7,021 nt of DNA. Source: a virus (lineage: Duplodnaviria > Heunggongvirae > Uroviricota > Caudoviricetes). Below the pieces are notes generated by a model. That model did no database searches and was not told the DNA's origin. It saw only the letters and a list, made by a program, of their open reading frames with translations. The translations under genes were made by a program, and so were the position numbers. This document shows, in pieces, positions 1 through 7,021 of this stretch (the stretch's first letter is position 1; the number at the start of each line of letters is the position of its first letter). The stretch is taken from IMG/VR virus record IMGVR_UViG_2681813316_000021. One strand, given 5' to 3'.

Positions 1-94
1 TACGCCTCGGGCTGGCTACTTAACCCCTGACCACTGCCGGGTAACTCGAAGTATTGCCCTGCATTCTGTGGGGCGGGGTGGGTGGTAGGTATAT

Positions 95-138
95 AATGTA
101 CTTTGCGTTCATTGTTTTAAAGTACTTTTAGTACATTT
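95..138. promoter_or_regulatory. Cluster of GTAC-core palindromic motifs (AATGTACTTT at 95-104, perfect 10-bp palindrome AAAGTACTTT at 119-128, TAGTACAT at 130-137); candidate left-hand operator set for the adjacent repressor
   Basis: Read directly: GTAC cores at 98-101, 122-125 and 131-134. The ATGTACT motif recurs in the repressor/cro intergenic region (657-663 and 681-687) with the same 24-bp centre-to-centre spacing. A consensus TATAAT sits at 92-97. Confidence 0.3.
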
Positions 139-211
139 TGTGTGTAAAAAAATGAGATGGGATAAAGTGAAGCACAAACCCGGAGGAAGGCGCTACCGGA
201 TTTATGCTGGT

Positions 212-631
212 TTAAGAGGCTTTTTGTTTTTTCTTTCGTGCTAACTCTTCGTAAATTGCATTGTACTTCTGTTTTTTCTCTTCAAGAGTTTTTAAAAGTT
301 CATCTGTCTCACTGTCAGGGAGCTCGTCCAGAAGGTCAATGATGATTTTTTGTCTTGGATTTAACTCCTGATAGAAACGTACCTGTCCACTTTCTTCTGT
401 ATCCTCTCCCAAAAGATAGGTTGGTGTTGTTCCTATTAGTGTTGCTAATTCCCTTAATTTCTCCCGGCGAGGAATTGTTTCGCCATTAAACCATTTGCTA
501 ACCGCTTTTGGTGTTAATTTCATTCGACGGGCAATTTCTGCCTGCCTTCCATGTTGTTCATAACCAGCGTTTTCACAGGCTAGCGCAAGCCTACTGGCGA
601 ACTCTTTACGCGCTTTATCTTCATGAACCAT
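212..631 (-). CDS. XRE-family helix-turn-helix phage repressor (CI/RacR-like), 139 aa, no C-terminal peptidase S24 domain
   Basis: ORF track. N-terminal HTH-like segment (GRQAEIARRMKLTPKAVSKWFNGETIP...). Divergent from a cro-like gene, the classic immunity-region layout. Lysine-rich C-terminus. No obvious Shine-Dalgarno upstream of the ATG, so possibly leaderless. Confidence 0.75.
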   Translation of the reverse strand: MVHEDKARKEFASRLALACENAGYEQHGRQAEIARRMKLTPKAVSKWFNGETIPRREKLRELATLIGTTPTYLLGEDTEESGQVRFYQELNPRQKIIIDLLDELPDSETDELLKTLEEKKQKYNAIYEELARKKKQKAS

Positions 632-710
632 AAGTTCAATGATATTCGCTCTTGAATGTACTGTCAGTTCTGTTATAGCATGTACTCAAAGTTCACATTG
701 TGAGGGTGAT
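632..710. promoter_or_regulatory. Divergent repressor/cro intergenic control region with repeated ATGTACT motifs and candidate cro promoter (TTGAAT 652-657, about 17 bp, TATAGC 674-679)
   Basis: Direct reading: GAATGTACTG (654-663) and GCATGTACTC (678-687) are direct repeats 24 bp apart; AAGTTCA is repeated at 632-638 and 689-695. A 79-bp gap between divergent HTH genes is typical of an operator/promoter switch. Confidence 0.5.
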
Positions 711-965
711 ATGAACCAGAAAACACTTGAAGATGTAATCAAAACTGTTCGCGTTGCTGTTGTGGCCGACGTTTGTGGTGTCAGCCAAAGAGCAATCTAT
801 AAATGGATGGATAACGGAAAATTGCCTCGCACAGAATATACCGGCGAAACAAATTACGCTGAAAAAATCGCTCTTGCATCAAACGGATTATTTTCTGCCG
901 ATGCAATTTTAACTATTGGCAGGAATAAAACTACTACGAAAAAGCTGATGGGAGTTGATTCATGA
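711..965 (+). CDS. Cro/YdaS-like small HTH DNA-binding protein (about 84 aa from the ATG at 711; the ORF track opens at 639)
   Basis: GAGGGTGA Shine-Dalgarno immediately upstream of the ATG at 711. HTH-like segment VADVCGVSQRAIYKWM. Divergent from the repressor. Stop overlaps the next start (ATGA at 962-965). Confidence 0.6.
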   Translation: MNQKTLEDVIKTVRVAVVADVCGVSQRAIYKWMDNGKLPRTEYTGETNYAEKIALASNGLFSADAILTIGRNKTTTKKLMGVDS

Positions 966-1387
966 AAATCAAGCATGAACACATCCGCATGGCGATGAAT
1001 GCCTGGGCGCGTCCTGATGGCGAAAAAGTTCCGGCAGCTGGAATAACCCAGGCTTATTTTGAGTTGGGTATGACGTTTCCTGAACTGTACGACGACAGCC
1101 ATCCGGAAGCCCTGGCTCGCAATACCCAGAAAATTTTCCGCTGGGTAGAGAAAGACACCCCTGATGCTGTTGAAAAAATTAAGGCGTTGTTGCCAGCGAT
1201 CGAAAAGGCAATGCCACCTTTGCTGGTGGCCAGAATGCGCAGCCACAGTTCAGCTTATTTTCGGGAGCTGGTGGAGACGCGGGAGCGATTGGTGAGAGAC
1301 GCTGATGATTTTGTCGCAGTGGCAATCGCCGGTTTCAATCAGATGAACCGTGGTGGCCCGGCAGGAAATGCTGTGGCAGTACATTGA
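962..1387 (+). CDS. YdaT/CII-like phage regulatory protein, 141 aa
   Basis: Sits directly after the cro-like gene and is translationally coupled to it. The N-terminus MKIKHEHI and the length recall Rac-prophage YdaT-family proteins; this is from memory, not a search. Confidence 0.5.
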   Translation: MKIKHEHIRMAMNAWARPDGEKVPAAGITQAYFELGMTFPELYDDSHPEALARNTQKIFRWVEKDTPDAVEKIKALLPAIEKAMPPLLVARMRSHSSAYFRELVETRERLVRDADDFVAVAIAGFNQMNRGGPAGNAVAVH

Positions 1388-1458
1388 CTGACAATAGTCA
1401 TATCGAATCGCTTCCGGCAACTCGTGAGTAAAAAGATTCGGTATCAGAAGAGGTGAGT

Positions 1459-2529
1459 ATGGCTAACGCCTGGCTCAGATTATGGCATGACATGCCAAAT
1501 GACCCTAAGTGGCGAACAATTGCCAGGGTGTCAGGGCAGCCAATTGCAACAGTGATGGCAGTGTATATCCACCTCCTGGTGAGCGCGTCACGAAATGTCA
1601 CGCGAGGTCACATTGATGTCACGACAGAAGATTTGGCAAGTGCGCTCGACGTGACAGAAGAGGTAATTGATTCAATTTTGCAGACGATGCAGGGGCGGGT
1701 ACTTGATGGTGATTTAATCACTGGATGGGAAAAACGCCAGGTGCTTAAAGAGGACAACGGCAATATTTCGCAAACCGCAAAATCTCCGGCAGAGCGCAAG
1801 AGGGCGCAGCGTGAGAGGGAAAGAAAGCGGGAACAAAATGGCGATTGTCACGACGCGTCACGAAATGTCACGCACATGTCACGACGAGTCACGACAGATA
1901 AAGATACAGATAAAGATACAGATCAAGAAGATCAAAATACTATGGTTCATGGCGTAAAAAACGCCACGAACCAGGCAGGGGATGTTCAGACCGTCAACCC
2001 TGGTCAGCCAGCAGGCACGACACCGGAAGCCGATTCAGCGTATGCGCTGAAAGCCGATTCGGGCGCTGTGCAGCAGGTGATGACCGCAAGGCCGGAGCAA
2101 TCACACCAACTGCAGCAGCCTGAAGCCGATTCCGCCATTCAGCGGGAAGCCGATCGGGTAGTCCCGGAAAACACCGGGCAGCCTGTGGGACGAGTGGATT
2201 ATCCGGATGTGTTCGAACAGATCTGGCGGGAGTACCCGTTGCGTGCCGGGGCAAACCCGAAGAAATCCGCTTTCAGTGCCTGGAAGGCCAGATTACGCGA
2301 GGGGGTGCCACCAGAGGCCATGCTGGATGGCGTGAGGCGTTACGCAAGATACCTGGCGGTTACCGGGAAAACGGGAACGGAATTTGTTCAGCGAGCGACG
2401 ACGTTTTTTGGACCGGACCGGAATTTTGAAAACCCCTGGTTGCTCCCGGTAAACGGCACGAACAACCAGCGTTGTGTGAATCATATTTCTGAACCGGATA
2501 CCGAAATTCCGCCGGGCTTCAGGGGGTAA
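1459..2529 (+). CDS. Putative phage replication initiation protein (lambda O-like role) with iteron origin inside the gene; ATG at 1459 preferred over GTG at 1453
   Basis: GAGGTGA Shine-Dalgarno before the ATG at 1459. Two clusters of GTCACG iterons and an AT-rich tandem repeat lie inside the ORF. Acidic, low-complexity linker (DKDTDKDTDQEDQN). C-terminal segment FEQIWREYPLRAGANPKKSAFSAWKARL resembles a motif I associate with phage replication proteins. Confidence 0.6.
   Translation: MANAWLRLWHDMPNDPKWRTIARVSGQPIATVMAVYIHLLVSASRNVTRGHIDVTTEDLASALDVTEEVIDSILQTMQGRVLDGDLITGWEKRQVLKEDNGNISQTAKSPAERKRAQRERERKREQNGDCHDASRNVTHMSRRVTTDKDTDKDTDQEDQNTMVHGVKNATNQAGDVQTVNPGQPAGTTPEADSAYALKADSGAVQQVMTARPEQSHQLQQPEADSAIQREADRVVPENTGQPVGRVDYPDVFEQIWREYPLRAGANPKKSAFSAWKARLREGVPPEAMLDGVRRYARYLAVTGKTGTEFVQRATTFFGPDRNFENPWLLPVNGTNNQRCVNHISEPDTEIPPGFRG
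1584..1623. repeat. Iteron cluster 1: four GTCAC(G/A) repeats at about 10-11 bp periodicity (1587, 1597, 1607, 1618), plus an inverted copy CGTGAC at 1650-1655
   Basis: Direct reading. The 20-bp block CGCGTCACGAAATGTCACGC at 1584-1603 recurs exactly at 1854-1873. Confidence 0.6.
1847..1894. repeat. Iteron cluster 2: five GTCACG repeats at about 10-11 bp periodicity (1847, 1857, 1867, 1878, 1889)
   Basis: Direct reading. Contains the exact 20-bp repeat of cluster 1. Helical-turn spacing is typical of initiator binding sites. Confidence 0.65.
1897..1938. repeat. AT-rich tandem repeat (GATAAAGATACA twice, then GATCAAGAAGATCAAAAT) immediately downstream of iteron cluster 2; candidate DNA-unwinding element
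   Basis: Direct reading. AT-rich tract adjacent to iterons, the same arrangement as in the lambda-type origin. Confidence 0.45.
2027..2154. repeat. Four direct copies of AAGCCGAT (2027-2034, 2051-2058, 2123-2130, 2147-2154), arranged as two pairs each 24 bp apart
   Basis: Direct reading. The copies fall in the Pro/Gln/Ala-rich linker of the replication protein (peptide-level repeats PEADSA / KADSG / PEADSA / READR). Confidence 0.4.
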
Positions 2530-2569
2530 GTGTTTATTTCAGGTCATGAGGTAATTTTCAGGAGGACTT

Positions 2570-2992
2570 GTGGCAAAAGTATTTACACAAGAAGAGCGAG
2601 AAAAAATTAAAGGGCAGGTTGTTGAACTCGTACGCCAGAGTGGGCGTGAGACGTTACGACAACTGGAAGTCAAGACAGGTGCGACAAGATATCTGATGAG
2701 CGTTCTCGCGAGAGAGCTGGTTGCCAGCGGTGATGTATACAATTCTGGTTACGGGTTATTCCCGTCTGAACAGGCGCGTAAGGACTGGCAAAATGCCCGT
2801 AAAAAGCTCTCAAGGGCAAAGCTGAAGAAACCATCTGCGGTTGATCCGGACCTTATCTGGTCATTACCTGATGGAGAAATACGTCGTTACGACAGGCATC
2901 ATAATATAATTTGTACTGAGTGTCGTAAAAGCGAAGTTATGCAGCGCATATTGTCGTTTTATCAGGGGAATGTTCGGTATTTATTAAAGTGA
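2570..2992 (+). CDS. Hypothetical small basic protein, 140 aa, GTG start, with C-terminal HHx3Cx2C motif (possible metal-binding or DNA-binding regulator)
   Basis: ORF track. AGGAGGA Shine-Dalgarno upstream of the GTG at 2570. Host-like base composition. I do not recognise a family. Confidence 0.5.
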   Translation: MAKVFTQEEREKIKGQVVELVRQSGRETLRQLEVKTGATRYLMSVLARELVASGDVYNSGYGLFPSEQARKDWQNARKKLSRAKLKKPSAVDPDLIWSLPDGEIRRYDRHHNIICTECRKSEVMQRILSFYQGNVRYLLK

Positions 2993-3301
2993 CGAGATTA
3001 AAATGCATTAGTTAAGATGTGAATTGACATTTTGTGGCACAGGATAGAGCTATCGTGGTTGTCCGCTTTGTGCCAGAAGCGGAAGTTAGAAATTATCTGC
3101 CAACCGATAAGATGGCTGCCTAAGTCGTAGCGATTCAGCACTGTTTTAGCGGCGCTCGATTGCAAAGTCGTGCTTTGCTGACTTGCGATTGTGCTCTTTA
3201 CGAGCAAAGCTTTCAGGTATAGTAAGTGCTAACTGTAGTGTAAAATTATAGGGATAGATGAAGAAAACAACGAGGCTTTAGCTAATCTTTGCAGTTGTGT
3301 C

Positions 3302-3310
3302 TGCTATAAT
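3302..3310 (+). promoter_or_regulatory. Candidate extended -10 promoter element TGcTATAAT about 80 bp upstream of the large ORF
   Basis: Direct reading: TG at 3302-3303 and TATAAT at 3305-3310. No good -35, which is tolerated for extended -10 promoters. A GAAGGGA Shine-Dalgarno precedes the ATG at 3392. Confidence 0.35.
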
Positions 3311-3391
3311 AAGGCGAAATTTTATCTGCATGATTTTGTTTGATTAACTCCGAAAGCCAGCTCTCTCGGTGAAGATTGGGAAGGGATATCA

Positions 3392-6300
3392 ATGAGTGAT
3401 GATAGCTATAAATTTCAAAAGTTAACTCCGTTCAGCGATGTTGAGCTGGGTGTATATAAAAATGCGATAGATTTTGTTTTTGCCAATAACGATCTAAAAA
3501 ATGTTGCGATATCAGGGCAATATAGCGCAGGAAAAAGTAGTCTTATCGAATCCTATAAGAAAAGTCATTCAAATATAAAGTTTGTTCATATCTCACTTGC
3601 TCATTTCAGATCGATTGAGGAAGCTGAAACTAATGAACCAAGTAAAGATATAAATGAAACCGCGTTAGAAGGTAAAGTTCTTAACCAGTTAATTCACCAA
3701 ATTAATGCTGATGATATTCCCCAGACACATTTTAAAGTAAAGAAAAAAATAAAAACTAACAACATTGTGATAAACACCATCTTTACGGTGTTATTTATCG
3801 CCATGATACTACATATCACGCTATTTAATAAGTGGGAAAAGTTTGTTTCACTTTTATCTGAAGGTAATATAAAGACACTACTTACATTATCAACTAAATA
3901 CGATACGCTTTTAATTAGTGGGTTTATATGTACTATCCTATCTTGTATTTTCATTTACAAGTTAATAAAAATCCAAAAGAATCGTAATGTTCTTAAGAAA
4001 ATAAATTTACAGGGTAATGAAATAGAGATTTTTGAAGAAAGTAACGAGTCTTATTTCGATAGATATTTAAATGAAGTATTGTACCTTTTCGAGAACGTTG
4101 ATGCTGATGCCATTGTTTTTGAAGACATGGACCGTTTTAATAGTAATAACATCTTTGAACGTCTTCATGAGGTTAACAGACTGGTTAATATTCAACGGGA
4201 CACAGCAGGGCACAAGAAATCGACGTTACGTTTTATTTACTTGCTTCGTGATGATATCTTCATTTCGAAGGATAGAACCAAATTCTTTGATTATATCATT
4301 CCAGTTATTCCTGTTGTTGATAGTTCTAACTCTTACGATCAGTTTATCACACATTTTGATGGTGGTGGTATTCTCAAGTTGTTCAATGAAAGATTTCTAC
4401 AAGGGATGTCTTTATATATTGATGATATGAGAATATTGAAGAATATTTATAACGAATTTCAAATTTATTATAACAAATTAAACACGACAGAACTTGACTG
4501 TAATAAAATGTTGGCCATTATTGCCTATAAGAATATTTTCCCAAGAGATTTTAGTGAGTTGCAACTTAATCAAGGTATGGTTTATACCATATTTAGTGAA
4601 AAAGACAACCTTATTATTGAAGAAATAAAGAAAATAGAAAAAGATATTAGAGATAGAAAAAAAGAGATTGAGGCAATCAATGATGAAATACTCAACTCTA
4701 GTCAGGAGGTTGATGCTATATACGATAAGGAATTATCTAGATATAATAATCATCCTCACTATAATCAGGCTGAGAAAGCTGATATAGCAAAGAGAAGGGC
4801 GGCTAGAAAAGAAAGTGTTGAAAATAAATTTAATGGTAAAATAGAAGAAATTAATGAGCTTATATCAAGATCAAGAGAAAGTTTGGTTGATTCTAGAAAC
4901 AAAAGACTTAAAGAAGTAATAACTAGAGAAAACATTGATGAAATATTTAAACTCACCTATACCAATGAAATTGGAGAGGAAAGAGACTTTAATGAAATAA
5001 AAAGCAGTGAGTATTTTGACTTGCTTAAATACCTTATTCGTGATGGTTATATTGATGAAACCTATACCGACTATATGACCTATTTTTATGAAAATAGCCT
5101 GAGTCGAATTGATAAGATGTTTTTACGCAGCATTACCGATCAAAAAGGCAAAGAGTTCACTTATCAACTCAAGAACCCCAAGCTGGTCGTTGCCCGCCTT
5201 CGAGAAGTGGATTTTGAACAGGAAGAGGCGCTTAATTTTGATTTATTAGCTTATCTGCTTCAAACGCCAGCCCAGGTAAACTTAATAAAACGTTTATTCA
5301 AACAACTAAGAAAAGATAGAAGAGTTGAGTTTATTCGTGGTTACTTTGAAACTGAGAGGGCTCAGCCTGTCTTCATTAATCGATTAAATACACAGTGGCC
5401 TGAGTTTTTTTCTTATGCGCTGACAGAGAGTGAATTTTCTGCTGATTGGGTTAAACTCTACTCTATAGGCACGTTTTATTATTCTGCCAATGACGCCATC
5501 GAGGCCATTAATATTGATGATTGTCTGACTGATTACATCTCTGATTCGGCAGGTTATTTAGCAATATCAGAACCGAAGGTTGACAAATTAATTAGTGGTT
5601 TTAAGTTGCTTAACGTCTCTTTTGTCAGTATTAAATTTGAAAACGCAAATAAAGTACTCTTTGATGCGGTTTACCAGCATTCACTTTATGATATTAATTT
5701 TTCCAACCTGACCTTAATGCTGAGTAAGGTTTACACGCTTAATAGTGAAGATGATATTCGCCATAAGAACTATACACTAGTGATGTCACAACCTGATTCT
5801 CCCTTGGCTAGTTATGTTAATAACCATATTAGGGACTATCTGGATATGGTTTTATCTAGTTGTGATGGTTCAATCGTGGATGATGAATCCATTGTTTTAT
5901 CCGTTCTTAATAATGAGGGAATATCTGATGAACAAAAAGGCCAGTATATAAACGCTTTGCAAACTTTCGTGACATCTCTGAGTGAGGTTGAGAGCGAATC
6001 TTTATGGTCATCTTTGTTGGATAAAGATAGAGCAGTGTGCTCTGAGGAAAATATTGTCTCTTATTTTGAACATGTTGATGGACTGGATGACTCACTTATC
6101 GAATTTATCAATAGAACTGATGTAGACCTGAATTTTCAAAATATTAATATTGATAACGAGCTTAAAGGTAAATTATTTAAATCGATTGTTATCTGTAATG
6201 ATTTATCAAATGATAAATATGAAAAATTAATTTGCTCACTAAATATTATTTGTAAAGCATCCTTTAGCGCTAGTAATATCGCGAGTGATAAGTTCAAAAT

Positions 6301-6964
6301 ATTAGTGGATAAAAATATTATTCGTATGAATGTTGCGCCACTTAATTTCATACGAGATAACTATTCAGAGCAACTTTCCTATTATATTCATAAGAATATC
6401 AGGGCATACGTTGAATTAATGACGATTGATAACTTTATTTTGGATGAGGCTATATCAATACTTTCTTGGAAAGTTGATGATGATTTGAAAGTTAAGCTAC
6501 TCGAGTTTGTTAAAACTCCGTTGGCTATTTATAGTAAGAATTACTCTCAGGTCGTTAATGACTATATTTTAGAAAATAATTTTAAACCAGATGAACTTCT
6601 AATCTTGACGTCATCTTATAAAACTTGGGGAACCTCTACTCAGTCGCTCATCTTGAGTCGAGCAATACAGGATATATCAGCATTGATAGCAAGTCCTAAT
6701 GATGTTTCTGAACCGTTACTAAAAAACCTGTTTGTCGCAGAGGGACTGAATATGCAGAATAAAATAGCACTGCTAATCGCTTTGTTGCCGGGTAAGGATT
6801 TGAGTAAGACGACTTGCAAAGAGTATCTTGATCTGCTTGGTTTATCGGAGTTCAGTAAAATTTTGGGGCGAGGCAAACCTAAAATTGAAGTTGATTCAAC
6901 TAATCAAAGTTTATTAACAGCATTAAGGAAGGTGCGAATAAGCGGGGAAATTCTTCTCGGCTGA
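3392..6964 (+). CDS. Large membrane-associated P-loop NTPase, KAP-family-like (PifA/YobI-like architecture), 1190 aa; candidate anti-phage defence protein
   Basis: Uninterrupted 3.57-kb ORF. Walker A GQYSAGKSS (aa 42-50, nt 3515-3541). Two hydrophobic helices at about aa 125-145 and 173-192 (nt 3764-3826 and 3908-3967). Walker B-like AIVFEDMD (aa about 241-248, nt about 4112-4135). Charged coiled-coil-like segment at about aa 400-510. Strong AT bias and AAA/AAT/ATT/GAT-rich codon usage, unlike the upstream genes. Confidence 0.8.
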   Translation: MSDDSYKFQKLTPFSDVELGVYKNAIDFVFANNDLKNVAISGQYSAGKSSLIESYKKSHSNIKFVHISLAHFRSIEEAETNEPSKDINETALEGKVLNQLIHQINADDIPQTHFKVKKKIKTNNIVINTIFTVLFIAMILHITLFNKWEKFVSLLSEGNIKTLLTLSTKYDTLLISGFICTILSCIFIYKLIKIQKNRNVLKKINLQGNEIEIFEESNESYFDRYLNEVLYLFENVDADAIVFEDMDRFNSNNIFERLHEVNRLVNIQRDTAGHKKSTLRFIYLLRDDIFISKDRTKFFDYIIPVIPVVDSSNSYDQFITHFDGGGILKLFNERFLQGMSLYIDDMRILKNIYNEFQIYYNKLNTTELDCNKMLAIIAYKNIFPRDFSELQLNQGMVYTIFSEKDNLIIEEIKKIEKDIRDRKKEIEAINDEILNSSQEVDAIYDKELSRYNNHPHYNQAEKADIAKRRAARKESVENKFNGKIEEINELISRSRESLVDSRNKRLKEVITRENIDEIFKLTYTNEIGEERDFNEIKSSEYFDLLKYLIRDGYIDETYTDYMTYFYENSLSRIDKMFLRSITDQKGKEFTYQLKNPKLVVARLREVDFEQEEALNFDLLAYLLQTPAQVNLIKRLFKQLRKDRRVEFIRGYFETERAQPVFINRLNTQWPEFFSYALTESEFSADWVKLYSIGTFYYSANDAIEAINIDDCLTDYISDSAGYLAISEPKVDKLISGFKLLNVSFVSIKFENANKVLFDAVYQHSLYDINFSNLTLMLSKVYTLNSEDDIRHKNYTLVMSQPDSPLASYVNNHIRDYLDMVLSSCDGSIVDDESIVLSVLNNEGISDEQKGQYINALQTFVTSLSEVESESLWSSLLDKDRAVCSEENIVSYFEHVDGLDDSLIEFINRTDVDLNFQNINIDNELKGKLFKSIVICNDLSNDKYEKLICSLNIICKASFSASNIASDKFKILVDKNIIRMNVAPLNFIRDNYSEQLSYYIHKNIRAYVELMTIDNFILDEAISILSWKVDDDLKVKLLEFVKTPLAIYSKNYSQVVNDYILENNFKPDELLILTSSYKTWGTSTQSLILSRAIQDISALIASPNDVSEPLLKNLFVAEGLNMQNKIALLIALLPGKDLSKTTCKEYLDLLGLSEFSKILGRGKPKIEVDSTNQSLLTALRKVRISGEILLG

Positions 6965-7021
6965 CTCAGTCATTTCATTTCTTCATGTTTGAGCCGATTT
7001 TTTCTCCCGTAAATGCCTTGA

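Follow-up and report, generated by a model that had tools for sequence, protein, structure and literature searches.

A probable divergent Tmn homologue of the YobI NTPase family, cut by IS5, in a lambdoid prophage

IMG/VR virus record IMGVR_UViG_2681813316_000021 (Caudoviricetes) is a stretch of 7021 nt, here called the window, which carries one very large gene starting at position 3392. Residue numbers below are those of this gene. It encodes a YobI-family nucleoside triphosphatase (NTPase), which is likely a divergent, full-length homologue of Tmn, a single-protein antiphage system, and its 3′ end has been replaced by the insertion sequence (IS) IS5. Upstream lie a cI-like repressor gene (212–631, minus strand), Cro, a CII/YdaT-like gene, a replisome organiser, and a Ren-like/DUF977 gene, which places the large gene after the replication module, as a sequence-only reading of the stretch had stated. 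In the list of open reading frames (ORFs), a single ORF spans 3392..6964 on the plus strand and encodes 1190 amino acids. Given its base composition, the probability of 1190 codons without a stop is ~1e-43. The AT-richness remarked on in the sequence-only reading was borne out: GC content is 32.8% in the ORF (3392–6964), against 47.3% in window positions 1–3391 and 51.1% across the replication genes (962–2992).

A Pfam scan gave one strong match, to YobI-ATPase PF20693 (E=6.2e-123, 411.4 bits with a cut-off of 27), covering profile positions 1–363 of 363 and residues 22–398 (3455..4585, plus strand). The protein thus matches over its full length the model named after YobI of Bacillus subtilis, and the early comparison to YobI-like NTPases held. 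To our knowledge, no function has been established for YobI itself; Kaur and colleagues reportedly treated YobI in 2020 within nucleoside triphosphate-dependent conflict systems. The PADLOC Tmn model PDLC02220 matched residues 9–439 at model positions 27–474 of 1273 (E=7.6e-67, 224 bits). No NB-ARC/STAND-type NTPase was matched in the Pfam and PADLOC scans, and NCBIfam gave no meaningful match. A HMMER search through all 1.84 billion cluster representatives returned 4741 sequences at E<=1e-3 and 2492 at E<=1e-30, and more than 75 of the representatives align across essentially the full length at 33–49% identity. Near-identical copies (92–100%) were found in E. coli, Shigella, Klebsiella, Serratia, Yersinia, Enterobacter, Pectobacterium, and Leclercia, and a full-length relative of 36% identity was found in Fusobacterium using tblastn.

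The Walker A and Walker B-like motifs proposed from the letters alone are present some 190 residues apart (Table 1). Two hydrophobic helices had been proposed between them, and a Kyte-Doolittle scan (19 residues) of the entire protein gave peaks >=1.6 only at residues 122–148 and 170–195. Both peaks fall between Walker A (42–49) and Walker B (240–247), are Lys/Arg-rich on their outer sides, and coincide with AlphaFold helices. A transmembrane hairpin with both ends inside the cell would fit the positive charges at both cytoplasmic flanks. An AlphaFold2 model built on a 76-sequence alignment had a mean predicted local distance difference test score (pLDDT) of 86.3. [quoted passage not shown] Paired helices follow in the model (404–430, 437–452, 459–480, and 483–501), and residues ~540–1180 are predicted to be all-alpha, with pLDDT mostly 85–96. 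Foldseek searches of the Protein Data Bank (PDB) with the full and C-terminal models returned only weak generic matches (ARM/HEAT solenoids, AAA+), none specific.

Tmn ("transmembrane NTPase") was first reported as a single-gene antiphage system by Gao et al. 2020, as described in a citing paper. Clade I examples are Tmn-25 of E. coli ECOR25 and copies on F-type plasmids (Gao 2020; Wu 2024; PMC13001434). The 2026 preprint PMC13001434, whose Tmn tree holds 785 sequences, describes Tmn as a YobI-family membrane decamer whose cytosolic arms bind phage T2 RIIB; it raises ATP turnover, exports Mg2+, and causes partly reversible plasmolysis without depolarisation. Walker A-dependent phage protection, the decamer, and trigger-stimulated turnover of ATP with Mg2+ export and plasmolysis have, as far as these sources go, been established for Tmn-25 and a few clade I/VIII variants only. 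Tmn also synergises with Gabija, with Septu I, and with PrrC; a phage anti-Tmn protein counters it.

The comparator was the Tmn of an F-type plasmid (locus L003, 1273 amino acids), with Tmn-25 numbering (L33, G66, K67). This protein has YobI-ATPase as its single Pfam domain and matches the PADLOC Tmn model at positions 1–1273 with 2057 bits. In a full-length BLASTP comparison, it aligned collinearly with the window protein over 1116 columns, at 23% identity (E=6e-50). When plasmids were searched with tblastn, "anti-phage transmembrane ATPase" genes of F-type plasmids were found, with ~28% identity over residues 4–398. Homology continues beyond the NTPase domain: in hhalign, a subfamily profile of residues 440 to the end matched plasmid Tmn 475–1273 with a probability of 98% (E=2e-13, 674 columns, 16% identity).

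Residues G47/K48, Y231, D245/R248, N266, K297/F298, and R347 are invariant in 75 full-length representatives and align with Tmn-25 G66/K67, Y262, D276/R279, N297, K325/F326, and R374, whose mutation abolishes defence (PMC13001434). In and right after Walker B, F243, E244, D245, D247, and R248 are all invariant in the same set. In the proximal arm, the counterpart of the essential Tmn-25 residue R544 is R472, a position that 68 of 75 representatives keep as R. The essential Y541 aligns with R469, a position that is Tyr in 41 of 75, and the essential F506 falls in an alignment gap.

Like Tmn, the window protein is the product of a single gene and has one Pfam domain with two transmembrane helices between Walker A and Walker B, and, like clade I Tmn, it shows collinear homology across ~1100 residues. 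The AlphaFold layout is the published Tmn layout, with a predicted coiled-coil proximal arm, an alpha-solenoid distal arm, and a small C-terminal alpha/beta domain. The differences lie in length (1210 amino acids when intact versus 1273), in the reach of the PADLOC model (the N-terminal third here, end to end for plasmid Tmn), in location (a lambdoid prophage slot and chromosomal islands here, the leading region of F plasmids for Tmn), and in the IS5 element that cuts the present copy. Features are listed in Table 1.

Table 1. Features of the Tmn-like gene and its surroundings in the window
Feature	Position	Strand	Details
Native portion of Tmn-like/YobI-family gene	3392..6928	+	Codons 1–1179 of 1210; 1177/1179 residues match WP_001278661
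Walker A GQYSAGKS	3515..3538	+	Residues 42–49; K48
Predicted transmembrane helix 1	3755..3820	+	Residues 122–143; hydropathy peak 2.29; AlphaFold H122–143; Lys-rich KVKKKIK before
Predicted transmembrane helix 2	3899..3985	+	Residues 170–198; hydropathy peak 2.16; AlphaFold H170–198; KIQKNRNVLKK after
Walker B region AIVFEDMD	4109..4132	+	Residues 240–247, then R248; ~190 residues from Walker A
Long paired helices (AlphaFold)	4601..4894	+	Residues 404–501; predicted equivalent of the Tmn "proximal arm" coiled coil
All-alpha solenoid-like C-terminal region (predicted)	5009..6928	+	Residues ~540–1179; "distal arm" equivalent and start of small C-terminal alpha/beta domain
Possible extended -10 element TGcTATAAT	3302..3310	+	82 nt 5′ of ATG, inside cassette; seen by eye
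Shine-Dalgarno-like GGAAGGGA	3379..3386	+	5 nt 5′ of ATG
TTAA target site of IS5 (YTAR type)	6923..6926	.	Junction versus uninterrupted gene
Left boundary palindrome GTCCGCTTTGTGCCAGAAGCGGAA	3061..3084	+	Homology start in non-phage contexts 3060/3061; backbone homology end ~3083–3091
Palindrome copies	window 3061–3084; L001:11862–11885, 15970–15993; L004:9061–9084, 10862–10885; L015/L016/L017:5202–5225		

Besides lacking the native C-terminus, the window allele departs from the common 1210-residue protein at two residues, T194I (codon 194, 3971–3973), at the cytoplasmic end of transmembrane helix 2, and T956A (codon 956, 6257–6259). A consensus promoter/terminator scan of positions 2900–3500 that required a -35 hexamer gave no signal on the plus strand, and an Rfam scan of the whole window gave no match. 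Among the upstream genes, the one following cro (962–1387, plus strand) matches "CII-like transcriptional activator" in PHROGs (E=1.5e-44); its homologue is named "toxin YdaT family protein" in RefSeq, and the record of phage Tritos has the name "Rha family transcriptional regulator."

The 3′ end of the ORF belongs to IS5. Window positions 6927–7021 (95 bp) are the terminal inverted repeat end of this element and start GGAAGGTGCGAATAAG. All 93 bases of 6929–7021 match IS5 copies at 8213 places in 1730 E. coli genomes, and in locus L002 the IS5 end lies 52 bp from a gene annotated "IS5-like element IS5 family transposase." YTAR is the target preference of IS5, and the junction reads ...GCATTAA followed directly by GGAAGGTGCGAATAAG. 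After R1179, IS5 puts 11 codons of its own (KVRISGEILLG) in place of the native RDNHFFSDFEVDNENPTYYKITRRRSMFGSDT; the stop codon (6962–6964) lies within IS5, and the 57 bp beyond the stop are also IS5. The long ORF of the sequence-only reading therefore stands, and the gene end given there does not. The intact protein has 1210 residues (WP_001278661, "YobI family P-loop NTPase" in RefSeq), of which the last 31 are gone here. Among 5426 complete E. coli genomes, 32 carry the gene at 99.8–99.9% nucleotide identity, the match ending every time at 6927, and the gene/IS5 junction was found in none of the complete E. coli genomes. The exact 1190-residue protein is recorded once, on a 7021-bp contig; the window is thus the complete contig, which breaks inside IS5.

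Residues 1180–1201 of the intact protein are kept in nearly all 75 representatives, with Ile at 1184 in 68, Tyr or Phe at 1187 in 67, and Tyr at 1197 in 53. A model of intact residues 700–1210 (pLDDT 94.1) has a helix at 1169–1180 followed by strands at 1186–1189 and 1196–1200 (pLDDT >90), which pair with a short strand at 1165–1166. With this segment conserved and modelled as a hairpin, IS5 appears to have entered a small terminal domain, folded in the model, directly ahead of the beta-hairpin. The truncated allele is therefore probably weakened or dead, having lost a conserved and confidently predicted element. Of the alternatives to our interpretation, the one that fares best, though we still think it rather unlikely, is that the insertion is functionally neutral and the 1190-residue chimera still a working defence protein. 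Only 31 of 1210 residues are lost, the frame continues for 11 codons to a stop, and the NTPase core, membrane hairpin, and nearly all of both arms are intact; moreover, the trigger-binding determinants that PMC13001434 gives for Tmn-25 lie in the proximal and distal arms, not at the extreme C-terminus. Against neutrality, 75 representatives of 33–49% identity keep the missing segment, which is modelled at pLDDT >90 as two strands of the small terminal alpha/beta domain, and IS903B/ISKpn26-broken copies and other truncated alleles exist elsewhere.

In strain NN5 (L011:4193–10093), IS903B and ISKpn26 (IS5 family) lie inside the gene. Two other damaged alleles (proteins P0002 and P0095) encode 1188 residues ending ...DNHFFSDFG and 1185 residues with the foreign N-terminus MYSTKP.... 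Since other strains hold IS-broken or truncated copies, decay of this gene is common. Either a cost that the gene imposes or a preference of IS elements for AT-rich DNA may lie behind the recurrent breakage.

Complete genomes carry the gene in Rac/Qin-type lambdoid prophages, where the DUF977/Ren-like gene flanks it on one side and hok on the other. In a non-phage E. coli island it adjoins Ag43 and a YeeP-like GTPase, in Klebsiella an IS110 transposase and an integrase, and in Serratia it sits amid ordinary chromosomal genes. The segment common to these contexts is 4.13 kb long, runs from window position 3061 (331 bp 5′ of the ATG) to ~170 bp past the native stop, and is 94–99.8% identical; an intact example is NZ_CM131229.1 3912627–3916759. 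Across the four contexts (prophage, E. coli island, Klebsiella, and Serratia), no conserved neighbour or downstream partner was found. Conserved downstream partners, which the sequence-only reading had left as a possibility, are rejected on this comparison, and the gene moves by itself, as a 4.1-kb cassette that includes an upstream region of its own.

Imperfect palindromes of ~24 bp mark both cassette ends, the left one reading GTCCGCTTTGTGCCAGAAGCGGA and the right one GTCCGCTCTTCGCTCAAAGCGG(A/C)C. In every locus, a regex scan located the left palindrome at this boundary. The prophage backbone is common to about 1100 E. coli genomes as far as just beyond the left palindrome, and homology resumes exactly at the right palindrome. 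The same pair accompanies the gene into the non-phage islands of E. coli, Klebsiella, and Serratia, and the palindromes could be recombination sites. Folded as DNA, the left hairpin is weak (-6.7 kcal/mol, z=-3.0). An exact-pattern scan with the left palindrome gave no match in IMG/VR and two probably chance matches in GTDB species representatives, so it is not a widespread repeat. In Serratia (L008:10777–10842), CTGACAG...CTGACAG comes after the right palindrome, together with a partial left-type palindrome, CTTCGTGCCAGAAGCGGGA; in L008 and L012, CTGACAG also stands before the left palindrome. This arrangement may be the remnant of an insertion event.

The prophage slot between the palindromes holds the Tmn-like gene in 20 complete genomes and other cargo elsewhere. 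Phage Tritos carries an FRG-domain gene there that matches the PADLOC candidate PDC-S15 (L004:9230–10564, minus strand), strain C5 a SMODS nucleotidyltransferase with SLATT (L015:5701–7141), and strains 503025 and 504211 AbiH with a 463-residue hypothetical protein (L016:5396–7785). On the strength of this cargo, the slot is a defence-gene hotspot, which gives independent support to a defence role for the Tmn-like gene. A literature search returned nothing specific on this lambdoid slot as a defence hotspot.

Taken with the YobI-ATPase and Tmn matches, the kept catalytic residues, the homology of the C-terminal arms to those of Tmn, and the absence of a shared neighbour, the slot sustains the proposal in the sequence-only reading of a prophage-borne candidate single-gene antiphage system. 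The family is already known and named, as Tmn, and is not a new candidate class. By homology to Tmn-25, the protein would oligomerise in the inner membrane, where its cytosolic arms would bind a protein that the phage makes early in infection. Trigger binding would raise ATP turnover and drive ion (Mg2+) export, and the cell would plasmolyse while phage development stalls. The trigger probably differs from that of Tmn-25, since the arms are only ~16% identical to the Tmn-25 arms. By analogy, the mechanism most likely follows this Tmn model rather than classical abortive infection; the earlier proposal of abortive infection does not agree with what is published for Tmn, namely turnover of ATP, export of Mg2+, and a plasmolysis that is partly reversible and comes without depolarisation.

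Several points weigh against this interpretation. Identity to Tmn is only 23% overall and ~16% in the arms. The Tmn model of PADLOC is covered over its first 35% only, which leaves an automated call uncertain. The NTPase falls in no PHROGs family, and a search of PDB sequences found no relative. The putative promoter element, TGcTATAAT at 3302–3310, is a consensus match made by eye. We found no published phenotype for any member of the present subfamily. The Tmn mechanism itself comes from one preprint with an 11.6 A map, and, as regards the truncated allele, Tmn-25 was used in that work with a C-terminal Flag tag (PMC13001434).

Two further ideas carry less weight. We advance only as speculation that the subfamily (at least 75 clusters at 50% identity, conserved over the full length) is a separate Tmn branch with a different phage trigger and perhaps a different ion, and that the palindromes are cassette-exchange sites. 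If this is true, defence genes would be passed around between lambdoid prophages and chromosomal islands through cassette exchange at the palindromes. A non-defence role for this YobI-family membrane NTPase, for example in prophage maintenance or in membrane or ion homeostasis that benefits the lysogen, is improbable. Such a role would suit the empty phenotype record of the subfamily and the ordinary chromosomal surroundings in Serratia. It sits badly with the invariance of the residues needed for Tmn defence, the homology of the arms to Tmn arms, and a slot otherwise filled by AbiH, SMODS and SLATT, or PDC-S15 genes, and also with the signs of defence cargo, namely a patchy spread (32 of 5426 E. 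coli genomes), the occurrence of near-identical copies across several genera, and low GC content.

The label of KAP-family, PifA-type NTPase given in the sequence-only reading, by which phages would be excluded through a leaky membrane in classical abortive infection, has transmembrane helices inside the P-loop domain and the naming of Tmn as a KAP NTPase in earlier papers in its favour, and is very hard to sustain when Pfam gives no KAP_NTPase (PF07693) match at E<=1 against 411 bits for YobI-ATPase, and when PMC13001434 keeps YobI and KAP apart as separate families, describes PifA, which had been offered as a transmembrane parallel, as without transmembrane helices, and reports neither depolarisation nor gross leakage for Tmn.

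KAP NTPases (PF07693), among them PifA and Enterococcus EF_KAP (PMC13552941), are also antiphage membrane P-loop NTPases with large uncharacterised regions, and Walker motifs are needed in EF_KAP defence (PMC13552941) as in Tmn. The window protein differs from them in transmembrane arrangement and C-terminal regions as well as in profile. Like Avs/STAND proteins, it is one large polypeptide that joins a P-loop NTPase to a helical-repeat sensor, and its fold has a weak likeness, at the ASCE level only, to the NTPase domains of Avs3, NLR, and CED-4. Unlike them, it has no separate effector domain, and its NTPase is N-terminal rather than central and is split by the membrane hairpin.

For annotation, the gene can be classified as YobI/Tmn-like, and a flag for disruption belongs on the present copy. 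The IS5-truncated allele, in which the C-terminal hairpin has been deleted naturally, is directly comparable with the intact allele. Tmn belongs to the few sensor-effector defences integrated in the membrane for which a mechanism has been proposed, and its tested variants come only from clades I and VIII. The gene described here represents a large branch with very different sensor arms, hosted by E. coli, Shigella, Klebsiella, Serratia, and Yersinia, and thus bears on how far the Tmn mechanism reaches and on the range of triggers that it covers.

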